From NCBI GenBank assembly GCA_030592845.1, contig JAUVII010000002.1, positions 581-64,580 of the forward strand: a stretch of 64,000 bases of DNA, read 5' to 3'. Shown here one piece after another: positions 2-54,716 of the stretch. The translations under genes were made by a program, and so were the position numbers. This DNA is from Candidatus Krumholzibacteriia bacterium (GTDB taxonomy: Bacteria > Krumholzibacteriota > Krumholzibacteriia > LZORAL124-64-63). The notes under the pieces were generated by a model. That model did not search any database. It was not told the origin of the DNA and was given only the letters and a program-made list of their open reading frames with translations. Each line of letters starts with the position of its first letter. The first letter of the stretch is position 1.

Positions 2-688
2 ATGTGTGTTTTGAAACTCCATGTGCGGGTACCCATGGACGCCTGGCGGCAGTGGATACGTCATAGAATGGCGTCGACGAATGAATCGAGTACTCGTTAT
101 TCCATCGCCATAGACGCCTCCCAGAAAACCGCCCCCGACCAGTGGCGCATCCAGGCCAAGGACAACAAACAGGGCAGCAGCGGATGGCTGGACGGCGATG
201 CCGGGACCGAATTAACCCGCCAGGAAGCCGAATTCCACGACACTGCCCGCGCCCTCTACAACGAGCGCCTCGAAATGGGCATCGCCCGCGAACAGGCCCG
301 CAAGGACCTGCCGCTGTGCACCTATACCGAAGCCTACTGGAAGATGGATCTGCACAATCTGCTGCATTTCCTGGCCCTGCGCATGGACCCCCACGCCCAG
401 CTTGAGATCCGGGAATACGCCAACATCATCGGCCGGGAAATTGTGGCCAATTGGGTGCCCCTGGCTTGGGAAGCCTTCGAGGACTACCGCATGGGCGCCG
501 TGGTCTTTTCCAGGATCGAGCACGAAGTCATCGCCGCGGTTGGAGCCGGCGATCACGAGAAGGCCGCCAGTATTGCCAGCGAAGCCGGGTGGCTCAAGAT
601 AGGCAAGTCAGGCAAGGTTCTGCGGAATCGGGAGCGGCAGGAGTTGGAAGCCAAGCTCGAACGGTTGAATCTTACCATTCCCTGGTAG
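2..688 (+). CDS. thyX: FAD-dependent thymidylate synthase ThyX, 5' end cut by window edge
   Basis: ThyX motif RHRxxSxxxxSxRY is present as WIRHRMASTNESSTRYS only ~20 aa into the ORF, so the real N-terminus lies upstream of the window. Stop TAG 686-688. Confidence 0.9.
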   Translation: MCVLKLHVRVPMDAWRQWIRHRMASTNESSTRYSIAIDASQKTAPDQWRIQAKDNKQGSSGWLDGDAGTELTRQEAEFHDTARALYNERLEMGIAREQARKDLPLCTYTEAYWKMDLHNLLHFLALRMDPHAQLEIREYANIIGREIVANWVPLAWEAFEDYRMGAVVFSRIEHEVIAAVGAGDHEKAASIASEAGWLKIGKSGKVLRNRERQELEAKLERLNLTIPW

Positions 689-744: not shown

Positions 745-1760
745 CTAACCCGACATCTTCTCCCACAAATTTCCCGCGCGCATTTTGCTCTTGAGCATCT
801 GCTCCAGTGACTGGCGGTTCTCTTCCGCCGGCTTGGGGAAAAATGCGGCGTGAACCGTTTCCCCCTCGACCGCCAGCGCGGACCCGATCAGATCCTGCCC
901 GAGAAACCGGACATCCTCCCCCATGCCCACCGATTTAAATTCTCCTCCTTGCACTGCGCCATCGCGGCCAGGAAATCGGCCACCGGATCGCCCGCCGGGA
1001 CGGATCCCTCCTTGGTCATGCGCCGGGGCTTTGCAACCACCGCATCCACCGCGTAGCTGCGCAGAAGCTTGGCGTGCAACCCGGCATAGACCTGGGGCCG
1101 GGATACGAAGTCACAGCCGGCCAACTTGCCATCGATGAACGCCAGCAGGCCCGCCTGGTTCTCCTCCACCGCAAAAGCCGAAACGAAGGCATCGACTTCC
1201 TCACGGTGTTTCAGGAAGGTGTCGCTCATGGCGCTGGTGGGAGAAGACACGCCCGATTCCGCCGCCATCATCCGGATGTTCTCCCAGACCTTCATCTGGT
1301 CACTGGCGTAACCCCGGCCCTCGCTCAACGAGGCGTGGACCGATTTCATTTTTCGCGAACGGACATCGTGCCTCATGACGTGTTCCGTCGAAGAGAACTC
1401 ACGCGAACTGTAGGACCACCGCCCCTGCTCGGTGCAACTGACCGGGACCGTCATCTGCTCACCGGCGGCCACCATGATGGTGGTGTTCAGCACCCGGTTC
1501 TGCTTGGCCCCCTGCAGTTCCTCTCCATCCAGGATCAGGACGGCCGATTGCGCATTGTTTTTCAGGGCCAGGTCCGGAACGTTTCCCCCTTCGGAAACCT
1601 CGGTGATCACCACCTCCTTGACCTCCAGGGCCACATCCAGGGAGATGTAGTCCGGGCCGGCCGGTCCCCGGTAGCAAACCGGGTGGATGGTCATGTTTTT
1701 GTGCTGACGGGGTTTGCCGATTTCGATGTTTTTCAGGATTTCCATGGTGATGCTGCTCAT
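745..1760 (-). pseudogene. ARPP-1 / DUF6569-family protein with the reading frame broken near 940-955 (frameshift or assembly indel)
   Basis: ORF 888..1838 carries blocks I associate with this family (ITEVSEGGNVPDL, LILDGEELQGAKQNRVLNTT, VPVSCTEQGRW). Probable start is ATG 1760, right after GGAGAC. The expected C-terminal block (FKSVGMGEDVRF...GSALAVEGETVHAAFF) sits in ORF 745..954 in another frame. The 745..1760 span is 1016 nt, one short of a multiple of 3. Confidence 0.6.
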
Positions 1761-1947
1761 GTCTCCATACCTCCGGATCGGTGCGGTATAAATGGGCGGC
1801 AAGACAAGAAACAACCGTTTTCGATTTCTGCAACTCAATTTTCATTAATTATCGAACCGGAATCCCCGATGGGCCTTGCCATCGGGCCAAATAACGCTAA
1901 CATCGGTGCCATCAGTGAATAATCGGATCTCAAACAGGGAGTCAAAT

Positions 1948-2295
1948 ATGGCCAAGCGCGTCGACTGGTATTACCACCGCAAGGGCTGAACGAGCAGTGG
2001 AAGAGCGCAGGGGTTCCTTGCGGAAAATGTTTTGAACGTGAAGGAAGAGACCAGCGCCTCCAAAAAACTGGGCGCCGAGAAGGCCCTCGAGTTGGCGAAG
2101 GCCGCCAGCCGGATCATCGTGATGAAGGGCAAAAAAGTTTCCGACTTCGACATGAAAAAGGATGCGCCGACAAAGGACGAACTCCTGGCGGCAATGCTGG
2201 GCACCACCGGCAATTTGCGGGCGCCCACCATCGTGCGCGGCAAAACCGTGCTGGTGGGGTTCAATCAGGAAGTCTACGACAAGGTGTTGGGCTAG
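1948..2295 (+). CDS. ArsC/Spx-fold (YffB-like) redox protein with in-frame UGA (1987-1989), candidate selenoprotein
   Basis: ATG 1948 lies 6 nt after AGGGAG. Translation is MAKRVDWYYHRKG-TGA-TSSGRAQGFLAENVLNVKEE..., continuing in frame into track ORF 2032..2295. The UGA aligns with the nucleophilic Cys of ArsC (IYHNPACGTSRNTL) and YffB (YGIKNCDTCKKA). The C-terminus ...LVGFNQEVYDKVLG is typical of the family. Confidence 0.65.
2005..2022 (+). promoter_or_regulatory. SECIS-like stem-loop downstream of the in-frame UGA
   Basis: CGCAGGG (2006-2012) pairs with CCTTGCG (2016-2022), including one G-U pair. The apical loop starts with G. The stem begins 16 nt after the UGA, within the distance range described for bacterial SECIS elements. 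Confidence 0.45.
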
Positions 2296-3224
2296 AGCTC
2301 CAGCTTGAGTACAACCGGCAGATGATCGCTGATCAGGTCATCGTACTGATTAAACCCATAGGTCAGGAAGGTGTGCAGGGGAACCACCTGGACCAAAGTG
2401 GTCTTTCCCTGGAAGGAATCGAACAGCGGGGCCGAAATCAGGATGTGGTCAAGATGGCTGGGCCACTTGGGATAGGACCAACTTGACGTCGCCCCCTGGG
2501 CGATCTCCATATCCACGAACCGGTAGAGATCCGGGGCATCCAGGAAGGGCTGGAAAACGTTATTGGCCGCGCTGTCGGTCAACTCATCGTTGAGATCTCC
2601 CACCATAACCACCCTCTGCCCCGCGAAATTATCCCGGATGTATTCATCCAGCACCTGGCTGGCCTGCAGACGGAGGAATTCCCGATCGTCCGCGGTGCCT
2701 TCATCGATGGTCCCGTTCCCGCAGCACCAATAGTGGTTGTTGATAACCACGAAGGATTTCCCGTCGAAACTCCCGGACAGAACAAGGGGATTCCGGTTCA
2801 GCGGATCGGGCCAGGGAAGCCCGGCCAGGATTTCGTAGAAGGTATCGACCTCCAGCTTGCCGCCGGTCTTGTAGAGGAAGGCCAGGTTGATGTAACTGTG
2901 ACTGGTGGCCTGAAATCCATCCCAGCCATCGAGCCCATCGACCAGGGCCTTGAATTCCAGGGAGTTGGAGATTTCCTGAAGAGCAATGATATCGATATCC
3001 ATGGCTTCGACGGCCTGGATGACTTTTTCCACTGTCTCGTCATCAGCTTTGGCAAATCTCTCCAGGTTCCAGGTGGCTATTTCCAGGGTGGTGTCAGTGC
3101 CGACGGTGGCGCCGGCAAATGGGTTCACGACCACAGGCACGACAGATTTTTCGGAGCTGCCGCAGGACGCCAATCCGAAAATGGCCGCCAGAAGAAGAAT
3201 GCCGATGCCGATGCGCTGAATCAT
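2292..3224 (-). CDS. Endonuclease/exonuclease/phosphatase (EEP) family lipoprotein
   Basis: Signal peptide plus lipobox (LLLAAIFGLASC). EEP-like blocks include IATWNLERF, IIALQEI, MVGDLND and SDHLPV at the C-terminus. ATG 3224 is preferred over TTG 3233. Confidence 0.8.
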   Translation of the reverse strand: MIQRIGIGILLLAAIFGLASCGSSEKSVVPVVVNPFAGATVGTDTTLEIATWNLERFAKADDETVEKVIQAVEAMDIDIIALQEISNSLEFKALVDGLDGWDGFQATSHSYINLAFLYKTGGKLEVDTFYEILAGLPWPDPLNRNPLVLSGSFDGKSFVVINNHYWCCGNGTIDEGTADDREFLRLQASQVLDEYIRDNFAGQRVVMVGDLNDELTDSAANNVFQPFLDAPDLYRFVDMEIAQGATSSWSYPKWPSHLDHILISAPLFDSFQGKTTLVQVVPLHTFLTYGFNQYDDLISDHLPVVLKLEL

Positions 3225-3341
3225 TTGCCTCAATCAACCTCTCCCAGGATCCTGGTTATCTGACCTCAATACCTCTATAAGATGATAAAAAAGCCAAAAC
3301 AAAGCCAGTTTCGAAGTTCAGCATACCTGAAGGCCGGGGCG

Positions 3342-3980
3342 TCAATCCAGGGATCGTTCGAACCAGGATTGCCCCTGGAGGTCACCACGGCGGAAACCGA
3401 GCCGTTTCAGGTAGTCCCGGTGGGTAGCCCCGGCCGCCGGGCTGAGCATCTTGTTGATACCCCGCTCACGCCAGATTGGTGCCATCTCATCCAGAAAAAA
3501 CCGCGCGCAGCGCAGGTCGCGATAGATGGGAAGGACATAGTCCAGATGGATGCGGACTTCGTCCCCGTTTTCTTCGTACACCACCAGTCCCGCCGGGTTG
3601 ACGTTTCTGAGGATGAAGGTCACCCGGGGGTTCCTCAACGATTCAAGGCTGAAATCGGGAAAAAACCGCCCGATGTCGGCCTCGTGAAAGGTGAGGAAGG
3701 TGTGCAGATAATTGTTGTCCAAGCGACTGATGGACATCAGGGAGAAATAGTCCCGGGTCCGGCTCATTCTCCCCAGGTAATAGATATTGACCAGCACGAT
3801 GAACCCGTTGACCACCAGCACGGGATAAGCACCCACGAACCAGCCGTAAACCGCAAACGCCAGGGCGCCGGACAGATTGATCCAGCGAAGCCTGGCCAGC
3901 GAACTCATCATCAAGGAGATGGCCACCAGAAGAGATCCGGCATAGCCGATGAATTCCGTCCATTCCATCCAGGAAAGCAC
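3342..3980 (-). CDS. Membrane protein: YgjV-like 3-TM N-terminus plus GNAT-like C-terminal domain
   Basis: Three hydrophobic helices in the first ~70 aa. The C-terminus ends ...HRDYLKRLGFRRG, reminiscent of an acetyltransferase fold. GTG 3980 lies 8 nt after GGAGG and 3 nt after the MFS stop. Confidence 0.55.
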   Translation of the reverse strand: MLSWMEWTEFIGYAGSLLVAISLMMSSLARLRWINLSGALAFAVYGWFVGAYPVLVVNGFIVLVNIYYLGRMSRTRDYFSLMSISRLDNNYLHTFLTFHEADIGRFFPDFSLESLRNPRVTFILRNVNPAGLVVYEENGDEVRIHLDYVLPIYRDLRCARFFLDEMAPIWRERGINKMLSPAAGATHRDYLKRLGFRRGDLQGQSWFERSLD

Positions 3981-3983
3981 TTG

Positions 3984-5162
3984 TCACACCTCCTGTTCGG
4001 GAACGCGGATCTGCAGGCAGATGAAGAACCCGCCCAGCGCGATGGCCCCGGCCAGCACGAACACCCACTGGTGGCCGTATTTCTCCCAGATGAAACCGGA
4101 CAGTACGGGAAGGGTCATGGCCACCACGTGATCGATGGTGATACCCAAAGAAATCGTGGGCGTGATGTCGGCGGGATCGACGGCGATTTTTTTAAGGTAG
4201 GTGGTGCGCGCCACCCGCAGGGCGAACAGGATATGGTCGAGCATGTAGGCGCCATAAAGGATTCGCAAGTCCCAGGGCGCCGAAAAAACATCCGAGGCAA
4301 AGGCGTAGACCATGCACACCACCAGCAGCATGATCTCGTCGGTGGCCAGGACCTTGCGTTCCCCCAGCCAGTCGATCACGTCCCCCAACAGCGGACGCAA
4401 CAGTACCCCCAAAGCCGAGGCCGCGAAATACAGCAGGGCGATGGTGGACACCGGCACATCGTGAAGTGAAACCAGAACCCAGGTGCCGAAAACCATAAAG
4501 ATCTGTTTGCGGATACCGAACAGGGCGCTGATGGCGTAGAAGATGTGGTACTCGCGCCGGTAGACCATCCTGCGGCTGGGCGGATCCTCCTTGCCGATGG
4601 TCAGGCGCATGTAAAAAACGCCGGCGATGGTGGCGCTGACGCCCCCCACCAGATAAAAAAGGTCATACCGATCGCCCACGAATTTGGCCAAAAGCCAGAC
4701 AGTGCCCACGCCCAGGATGACGCCCATGTTTCGCGCCCCGCCCAGCTGCCCCAGGCGTCGCCCCTCGCTCCCGCGTTTCGCCAGTTTGAGGCCGAGAGGA
4801 CCTTCCACCGCGAAAATGATGTGATCACCCATGGACCAGACCACGATCCATATCACCAGCAGCGCCAGGCCGGGGGAGAGAAAAGCCAGCCCCAGGGCGC
4901 CCGCCGCGGTGGCGACCATGGCCAGGGCGGCGATCCGGCTTTCACGCATGTGGGCCAGCAGGAATCCCATCACGACAAAAATCAGGAAGCCCGGCAGCTC
5001 CCGGGGAAACTCAAGCCAGCCGCGGTTCCCGGCATCGAACCCGTGCACCTCGGACAGGTAGTTGTTGAGGGTGGAAAGGAAAATGCCGCTGGTGGCGCCG
5101 AAAAACATGGTGGCCAGCAGAACACGGCGGAAATCTCCGGTCACTTTACGGGCGATGTTCAA
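3984..5162 (-). CDS. MFS transporter
   Basis: About 12 predicted TM helices and MFS-like loop motifs. The TTG start overlaps the malQ stop (TTGA), suggesting translational coupling. Confidence 0.8.
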   Translation of the reverse strand: MNIARKVTGDFRRVLLATMFFGATSGIFLSTLNNYLSEVHGFDAGNRGWLEFPRELPGFLIFVVMGFLLAHMRESRIAALAMVATAAGALGLAFLSPGLALLVIWIVVWSMGDHIIFAVEGPLGLKLAKRGSEGRRLGQLGGARNMGVILGVGTVWLLAKFVGDRYDLFYLVGGVSATIAGVFYMRLTIGKEDPPSRRMVYRREYHIFYAISALFGIRKQIFMVFGTWVLVSLHDVPVSTIALLYFAASALGVLLRPLLGDVIDWLGERKVLATDEIMLLVVCMVYAFASDVFSAPWDLRILYGAYMLDHILFALRVARTTYLKKIAVDPADITPTISLGITIDHVVAMTLPVLSGFIWEKYGHQWVFVLAGAIALGGFFICLQIRVPEQEV

Positions 5163-52980: not shown

Positions 52981-54093
52981 TTGAATTCCCTGCGCAAAAA
53001 ACTTCTCCTCGCGGCCGGAGCGATGGTGGTCGCTCTTGTCATCGGGGAATGCGGCTCCCGGATCGTTCTCCCCCTCCTGCCCGATCCGCCCGGTACCGGT
53101 TGGCTGGGTGACCCGGTATGCGGCTACCGGCTGCGCCCGGTCGAACCCGGTGATGTCCCGGAAGACGCCGACTCCCACATCAATACCCTGGGTTTCCGGG
53201 ACCGGAATCATACCCCCACTCCCTCCGGGGATGTTTTTCGTGTTTTGGCCCTGGGTGATTCGTTCGTTTACGGAGTCGTACCGGTTTCCGATAATTTTTT
53301 ACGAATCGTGGAAACCCGGTTGGGCCAAAGCGGAACGCCTGCTGAAGTGATAATGGCGGGGATCCCTGGATGGCACGGTGGCAACCAGGCGGCATGGCTG
53401 GAGGACCGGGGTCTGGCCATGGAGCCCGATCTGGTCATCATTAATTTTTTCGTGGGAAACGACGTGACCGGTTTGACCATTGGCGGCCGGGTCATCAGGG
53501 GAATTCTCTATCCGACCACCAGTCCCCGGCCGGTAAAAAATTTCCTGCGCAAATCCACCCTGTTTCTTCTTTTTGAAACCCAGGTTCTGGGGCCCCTCCG
53601 CTATTATGGCAAACAGGGCCCGGACTGGGTCATTCCACCGGATAACGAACCGGTCAATGAGCACTATCTCTACATGCTTTCCCAGAATCTGCCGGTTTAT
53701 CTCCGAAATCCCGGGAGCGACACCTCTGAACTGTGGGACCAGGCGGAAGACCACTTGAAACGAATCGACAGTATGTGCCTGAATGCCGGAATACCGTGGC
53801 TGCTGGTGTTGATTCCCGGCGAAGTGCAGGTGGATCCGGAAATCCGTTCCCAGGTCCTGGAGGGGTTGAACCGGGTTCCTGAGGATTACGATTTTGACGT
53901 GCCCCAACGCCGGTTGAAGGAATTTGCCCGGACCCGTCAGATCCCTGTGATCGATCTGTTGCCCGCCCTGCGGGAAGCTCACCAGGCCGAAGGACGGCAA
54001 TACGTTCCCAACGATACTCATTGGAACACCCGAGGCAACGCGACGACAGGAAGAGCGATGGCCGAAGAGATCATCAACGGGTTTTCAAGATAG
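52981..54093 (+). CDS. SGNH/GDSL-like hydrolase with N-terminal membrane anchor
   Basis: LALGDSFVYG (GDS block), IINFFVGND, and C-terminal NDTHWN. A TTG 52981 start (8 nt after GGGAGGG) is preferred over the track start 52858, which would overlap the divergent gene. Confidence 0.6.
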   Translation: MNSLRKKLLLAAGAMVVALVIGECGSRIVLPLLPDPPGTGWLGDPVCGYRLRPVEPGDVPEDADSHINTLGFRDRNHTPTPSGDVFRVLALGDSFVYGVVPVSDNFLRIVETRLGQSGTPAEVIMAGIPGWHGGNQAAWLEDRGLAMEPDLVIINFFVGNDVTGLTIGGRVIRGILYPTTSPRPVKNFLRKSTLFLLFETQVLGPLRYYGKQGPDWVIPPDNEPVNEHYLYMLSQNLPVYLRNPGSDTSELWDQAEDHLKRIDSMCLNAGIPWLLVLIPGEVQVDPEIRSQVLEGLNRVPEDYDFDVPQRRLKEFARTRQIPVIDLLPALREAHQAEGRQYVPNDTHWNTRGNATTGRAMAEEIINGFSR

Positions 54094-54128
54094 GCGACAA
54101 CACCGTTACTTTCCTGAAAGTTGACATC

Positions 54129-54716
54129 ATGAAAACAGTCTTCATCGTCATGGCACTGGCCATCATCCTGGCTGCGGGCATCAGTGTTTTTTTCCTGCGG
54201 GGCGCCCTGTCCACCGGCAGCCAGAAACCTGCCGGGAAAACGGCGAAGGTGTTGTGGGACCTGAAGACCAGGACCCTGTCGGGCGCGCCCGCTGACCTGG
54301 CGGATTGGCGGGGCAAGGTCGCCCTGGTGGTGAACGTCGCCAGCAAGTGCGGACTGACGCCCCAGTATGAAGGGCTCCAGACCCTCTACGGGGTATGGGA
54401 GGAAGAAGGTTTCGTGATCCTGGCCTTTCCCAGCAACGATTTCCTGGGCCAGGAGCCGGGCGCCCCCGCTGAAATCAGGGAATTCTGCGACTCCAACTAC
54501 GGAGTAACGTTTCCGATGTTCGAAAAGGTGAAGGTCAAGGGTGACGGCAAGGGGGAAATCTACAAATGGCTGACCAGTACCGGGCTGGAAGAGCCGACCT
54601 GGAACTTCACCAAGTACCTGGTGGGGAGGGACGGACACCTCATCGCCCGCTACGCCCCACGCACCAAACCGGACGACGCTGATATGGTGGCGGCGATTCG
54701 GAGCGCCCTGGAATAA
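54129..54716 (+). CDS. Glutathione peroxidase (Cys type) with signal/anchor sequence
   Basis: LVVNVASKCGLTPQY, FPSNDFLGQEPG and WNFTKYLV are canonical GPx blocks. The redox residue is Cys (TGC), not Sec. Confidence 0.9.
   Translation: MKTVFIVMALAIILAAGISVFFLRGALSTGSQKPAGKTAKVLWDLKTRTLSGAPADLADWRGKVALVVNVASKCGLTPQYEGLQTLYGVWEEEGFVILAFPSNDFLGQEPGAPAEIREFCDSNYGVTFPMFEKVKVKGDGKGEIYKWLTSTGLEEPTWNFTKYLVGRDGHLIARYAPRTKPDDADMVAAIRSALE

Follow-up and report, generated by a model that had tools for sequence, protein, structure and literature searches.

Selenocysteine (Sec)-containing proteins related to the arsenate reductase ArsC are an established group of bacterial selenoproteins. ArsC-like selenoproteins were listed in the 2006 survey of bacterial selenoproteomes (PMC1794560), UxxS and UxxC forms of them appear in the surveys of Zhang and Gladyshev (PMC1794560; PMC2398784; PMC9312934), and both groups are listed in the 2022 review (PMC9312934). 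That such proteins had been reported in computational surveys was stated, correctly, in the preliminary description of the DNA considered here. The gene at positions 1948-2295 (+) of the window, by which is meant the whole 64-kb stretch of DNA that was analysed, resembles the NCBI family NF041106 and its equivalents in these surveys, the groups named "Arsenate reductase (ArsC) 1, UxxS" and "Arsenate reductase 2 / ArsC-like, UxxC" in its N-terminal Sec, its UxxS motif and its downstream SECIS element with a loop G. From NF041106 it shows no material difference. UxxC and UxxS alternate inside that one family. Because the family, the position of its Sec, the UxxS and UxxC motifs and the SECIS were published in 2006-2008 and are covered by an NCBI model, the locus does not represent a new system. 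The gene belongs to a family that is already described and curated, and within it is an ordinary member, with nothing new in kind. Judged from its sequence, it very likely encodes a 115-residue selenoprotein of the ArsC/Spx/YffB fold (NF041106), in which the UGA at 1987-1989 is decoded as Sec.

The frame of the selenoprotein is opened by the ATG at 1948-1950 (+) and comprises 115 codons, with a sole TGA at 1987-1989 and a terminal TAG at 2293-2295 (Table 1). It reads MAKRVDWYYHRKG over the first 13 codons, followed by the TGA and then by TSSGRAQGFLAENVL..., with no further interruption up to the TAG. The mechanical ORF list has a single entry in this frame, the 87-aa ORF that starts at the TTG at 2032 and ends at 2295. 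The preliminary description had made the same observation on the ORF list, and all of its coordinates for the ATG at 1948, the AGGGAG Shine-Dalgarno sequence with its 6-nt spacer and the TGA agree with the present reading.

Table 1. Positions of the predicted selenoprotein gene, its signals and its neighbours in the window.
Feature	Position	Strand	Basis or remark
thyX (Pfam Thy1)	2-688	+	Same strand as the selenoprotein gene and upstream of it
316-aa ARPP-1-domain protein	888-1838	-	PF20208, 300 bits; between thyX and the selenoprotein gene
Weak sigma-70-like promoter match, TTGCCA-16-TAACAT	1876-1903	+	9/12 consensus; 1 found against 0.4 expected; a pattern match, not functional evidence
Shine-Dalgarno sequence AGGGAG	1936-1941	+	Direct reading; 6-nt spacer to the ATG; protein conservation in relatives starts at the same Met
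Predicted ArsC-family selenoprotein CDS, 115 residues, Sec at residue 14, TAG 2293-2295	1948-2295	+	Translation, NF041106, PF03960, tblastn
Predicted UGA Sec codon (U14), motif U-T-S-S	1987-1989	+	TGA in 81/81 related loci; TGC/TGT in 6 Cys-form homologues
SECIS-like hairpin	2006-2022	+	5' arm CGCAGGG 2006-2012, loop GUU 2013-2015, 3' arm CCUUGCG 2016-2022; codons R-A-Q-G-F-L-A
Invariant loop G-U, presumed SelB contact	2013-2014	+	83/83 Sec forms; the G is the third base of a Gly, Glu or Lys codon
87-aa TTG ORF, a truncated call and no separate gene	2032-2295	+	ORF list; P0001 is the same truncated product in public databases
Endonuclease/exonuclease/phosphatase (EEP) gene	2292-3233	-	Convergent with the selenoprotein gene; 4-nt overlap of the two stop codons (2292-2295)

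With the Sec entered as Cys, the translation matches the NCBIfam model NF041106, "ArsC family (seleno)protein", at 122.5 bits against a cutoff of 85 (E = 1.1e-35), residues 5-110 of the protein being aligned with positions 1-107 of the 107 in the model. Entered in the same way, it matches Pfam ArsC (PF03960) at 32.9 bits against a gathering cutoff of 24. The scores for TIGR00014 (arsenate reductase, glutaredoxin type; 13.3 bits against a cutoff of 106, E = 0.093) and TIGR01617 (Spx/MgsR; 32 bits against a cutoff of 75) are below the respective cutoffs, and by these curated cutoffs the 115-aa protein is neither a true arsenate reductase nor an Spx. Structural comparison is based on an AlphaFold model (pLDDT 89.3) of P0016, which at 61% identity is the closest of the Cys homologues. 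In this model, strand 1 (DWYYH; E4-10) is followed by the Sec/Cys site, with which helix 1 begins. Its best PDB matches are Spx, YffB and ArsC-related uncharacterised proteins (TM 0.5-0.58); glutaredoxin and NrdH come next.

Spx/MgsR (1Z3E, 6GHB, 3L78) gives the best structural and PDB-sequence matches. U14 aligns with Cys10 of Spx, the sequence U-T-S-[C/S] falls on C10-T-S-C13, and the LR(R/A)P and VG(F/Y)N motifs are shared. The TM score is only about 0.55, however, and the 115-aa protein is without the C-terminal tail of Spx, while a beta-hairpin (55-68) in the P0016 model takes the place of the Spx helical subdomain. Unlike Spx with its CxxC redox switch, the window allele reads U-T-S-S and has no second Cys, whereas most of its relatives read U-T-S-C. 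YffB (PA3664, 1RW1), 3GKX and 2M46, which are small single-domain proteins, match over the full length with profile E values of 1e-7 to 2e-4 and with Foldseek TM scores of 0.56-0.58 for the P0016 model, but they are Cys proteins and share only about 15-22% identity. R773 ArsC is a member of the same PF03960 superfamily, and its nucleophile, Cys12, occupies the position of Sec14 in the alignment. Its motif, C12-G-T-S15, resembles UxxS. Within the arsenate-binding Arg triad of R773, as aligned at 15% identity, R91 (LRAP) is plausibly the counterpart of Arg94, no counterpart of Arg60 is evident, and that of Arg107 is ambiguous. The earlier alignment of the UGA with Cys12 of ArsC and with the Cys of YffB holds both on sequence alignment and in the PDB profile matches. 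No ars genes (arsR, arsB/acr3, arsA or arsD) are found among the neighbours of the gene, which are thyX, the ARPP-1-domain gene, the EEP gene and MalQ.

The protein search returned 363 relatives, and a tblastn scan of species representatives (one genome per species) yielded 80 loci matched over residues 1-115, to which the window sequence (L001) was added to give 81. The closest loci (63-84% identity) belong to Krumholzibacteriota MAGs, and the remaining ones to Planctomycetota, Acidobacteriota, Myxococcota, Gamma- and Alphaproteobacteria, Gemmatimonadales, Binatia and Spirochaetes. TGA is found at the identical codon in all 80 species-representative loci and in L001 (81/81), down to 51% protein identity. 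Full-length homologues with Cys at the UGA position, reading DWYYHRxG-C-xx-C, are also present (P0016, P0061, P0063, P0081, P0093, P0098, P0101 and P0102), and the DNA of six Cys homologues has TGC or TGT at the UGA codon. One Cys member, P0063, is itself named "ArsC family (seleno)protein" by NCBI. Over the 13 codons before the Met, column conservation is 11-31% (about 15%) and stops are present. Conservation sets in abruptly at the Met (M 83%, D 93%, W 98%, Y 100%, R 100%, G 93%), and there are zero stops from the Met to the UGA. The pairing of Sec with Cys, the conservation of the 13 residues upstream of the UGA and the occurrence of the TGA beyond this one allele had been among the points on which, in the preliminary description, a selenoprotein would stand or fall, and all three come out in its favour. 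Its expectation that standard callers would miscall the gene is likewise borne out, as most close relatives in the databases are fragments of 85-87 aa or about 101 aa that start just past the UGA position.

The motif following the Sec is split within the family, with UxxC in 72/81 loci and UxxS in 9/81, the latter being the window sequence and 8 other species loci. Their Ser codons differ (AGT, AGC, TCA, TCC), which points to several separate origins of UxxS. The UxxS proteins, including the window allele, have zero cysteines anywhere. Located at the start of helix 1, in the position of Spx Cys10 and ArsC Cys12, Sec14 would act as the redox nucleophile, and in the window allele its selenol would be the lone redox-active residue. 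As a U-T-S-S protein without any Cys could not form an intramolecular selenenylsulfide, it would have to be recycled by an external thiol, in a manner like the monothiol C-x-x-S chemistry of R773 ArsC.

The SECIS-like hairpin at 2006-2022 starts 16 nt past the UGA and is part of the MFE fold. The single-sequence fold of this region is no better than that of shuffled sequences (z = -0.9), and Rfam gave no SECIS or other meaningful match, either for the window at the gathering threshold or for positions 1900-2350 at E <= 10. It is the comparison with relatives that supports the hairpin. Around the same three bases, at a fixed offset from the UGA, 83/83 Sec forms have a stem of 4 bp or more, and in 81 of them it has 5 bp or more. 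It exists in two versions: CGCAGG...CCUUGCG, coding for QGFLA, is found in 59 sequences, and GCGUCCA...UGGACGC, coding for SKFLD/E, is found in 22 sequences at the same place, with the register shifted by one base. In 58 version-1 sequences, pairing occurs in 92.2% of cells, compared with 37-65% when the 3' arm is slid. Changes on both sides affect 4/8 pairs (42 cells), e.g., G:C to A:U and G:C to U:A. The covariation score of the 58 version-1 sequences was reached by 0/500 shuffles, although the sequences are phylogenetically related, so that the shuffle and Fisher figures overstate independence and should not be read as probabilities in the strict sense. No assumption of sequence independence underlies the slid controls or the synonymous-site contrast. 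The codon that supplies the loop G in the 83 Sec forms is GGG (39), GAG (21), AAG (21), AGG (1) or TGG (1). What had been noticed in a single sequence, a hairpin 16 nt past the UGA with a loop starting with G, is thus a conserved and covarying element with an invariant loop G-U.

Six Cys forms provide a control. The loop G is present in 1/6 and the stem is lost in 4/6, and stem and G occur together in 0/6. Two of these forms (L082 and L085) lost the loop G synonymously, with GGA in place of GGG for Gly, and the QGFLA peptide is relaxed in Cys forms (QAFLE, QDYLA, DAFLV). In the 66 nt that start with the Cys codon, L085 and L086 keep a stem of 6-8 bp at the SECIS position, with an A replacing the loop G. 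On sequence grounds, these stems look like remnants of SECIS elements left by recent Sec-to-Cys conversions; a "remnant SECIS" in Cys forms recently derived from Sec forms has been described previously (PMC1794560, Fig. 4).

Like the SECIS of the E. coli fdhF type, the hairpin is a stem-loop that follows closely on the UGA inside the coding sequence and has a G-U in its apical loop. This G-U is located at +27/+28 from the U of the UGA, compared with +23/+24 in fdhF. A bulged U is not evident, and the stem has 7-8 bp and the loop 3-6 nt. The hairpin with its apical G-U would function as a bacterial SECIS, bringing SelB-GTP-Sec-tRNA(Sec) to the ribosome. We infer that Sec is actually inserted in the source organism and that its insertion is SelB-dependent, and the redox mechanism set out above is proposed in the same sense.

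One alternative is a pseudogene, a Cys-type gene of the ArsC family in which the TGA arose by nonsense mutation or through an error of sequencing. Cys-form homologues are known, with P0016 the closest at 61% identity, and Sec machinery is not seen within the 64-kb window. Against this, 81/81 independent assemblies have a TGA at precisely this codon, at protein identities as low as 51%. The reading frame is undamaged before and after it, and a dedicated covarying hairpin follows it, which leaves a pseudogene with a negligible probability. The true gene could also be the 87-aa ORF from the TTG at 2032, with the 13 codons upstream of the UGA being non-coding or a separate leader peptide; this is what gene callers produce, and dozens of database entries have 85-87 aa. 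Yet these 13 residues are among the most conserved of the protein (W 98%, Y and R 100%), the equivalent residues of Cys homologues make strand 1 of the model (E4-10), and the strong Shine-Dalgarno sequence precedes the ATG at 1948, not the TTG at 2032. The truncated product would, moreover, be without the redox motif and helix 1, and a short gene of this kind is very improbable. As both the TGA and the upstream residues are conserved among relatives, an isolated nonsense mutation is excluded, and so is a short gene of its own downstream.

If UGA were reassigned, to Trp as in code 4 or to Gly as in code 25, this site would hold a standard amino acid and not Sec, and one public homologue, P0080 (L088 501-848), is indeed stored with a Trp there. 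This entry also has a terminal Trp, its source contig having been translated with code 4, so that its true TGA stop is shown as W as well. Code-4 translation, as in P0080, is another route to mis-recorded selenoprotein genes. In the window, TGA is the stop codon of 18/39 genes, including NrdJ and MalQ, whose family matches reach the end of the ORF. Besides 1987-1989, no credible gene with an in-frame TGA, and no other selenoprotein candidate, was found in the 64 kb. A reassigned genetic code is excluded by the 18 genes ending in TGA together with the single credible in-frame TGA, and its probability is practically nil. A genuine selenoprotein gene whose hairpin merely mirrors amino-acid conservation (QGFLA) and carries no RNA signal has a slim chance of being correct. 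The stem does sit in strongly conserved codons (F 94%, L 98%), and the z-score of the single-sequence fold is unremarkable. However, 83/83 Sec forms keep the third-position G whether the codon stands for Gly, Glu or Lys, while it is gone in 5/6 Cys forms, and Cys forms without it keep similar peptides, such as those with the GGA Gly codon in L082 and L085. Pairs show changes in both arms, the stem as a whole has an alternative version, and the QGFLA peptide is itself relaxed when Sec is replaced by Cys. The preferred explanation is accordingly a selenoprotein gene with its own RNA signal, as outlined at the outset.

Among 40 ORFs covering most of the 64-kb window, NCBIfam identified no selA, selB or selD, and ARAGORN found no tRNA-Sec in the window. 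Run on the 80 related loci, it found no tRNA of any kind within the +/-3 kb around them. A literature search on Sec use in Krumholzibacteriota gave nothing relevant. The gene flags its source organism as a likely Sec user, and this organism very probably has the Sec-decoding trait. The main value of the locus lies in annotation: Prodigal-style callers truncate the gene, most public copies are 85-87-aa fragments, and one is a wrong-code translation. The selenoprotein content of Krumholzibacteriota-like MAGs is therefore undercounted, given the truncated public copies.

The only neighbours that recur across loci are thyX and the EEP gene. The convergent arrangement of the EEP gene is kept in 12 close relatives. 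In about 17/87 loci, from at least three phyla and including the closest Cys form, thyX is found on the same strand, directly or closely upstream. It is immediately upstream in L004, L006, L014, L015, L019, L028, L051, L066 and L082, which represent Krumholzibacteriota-like, Planctomycetaceae and Binatia genomes and the closest Cys form, and it is about 0.8-1.9 kb upstream in 7 more loci and in the window. The ARPP-1 gene of the window appears to be an insertion relative to loci in which thyX adjoins the selenoprotein gene. The adjacency of thyX may reflect a functional link and is the only functional hint found. An unlikely but specific proposal is that the Cys-free UxxS proteins are single-selenol enzymes and that the family has its role in nucleotide metabolism or flavin-dependent thymidylate synthesis and not in arsenic or general thiol redox. 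If a thyX-linked role were true, it would be the first clue to what this orphan family of selenoproteins does.

Two further regions of the window touch on Sec. At 3342-5162 (-), ORFs of 392 aa and 212 aa with coding-like GC3 share one frame, with a single TGA between them at about 3986. NCBIfam gave no match for either ORF, and the TGA was considered as a Sec site and rejected, the ORFs being judged two adjacent same-frame genes. At 54021-54716 (+), a homologue of glutathione peroxidase, whose family has Sec forms, carries a Cys (NVASKCGLT). This ORF has a long N-terminal extension, and its true start is probably further downstream.
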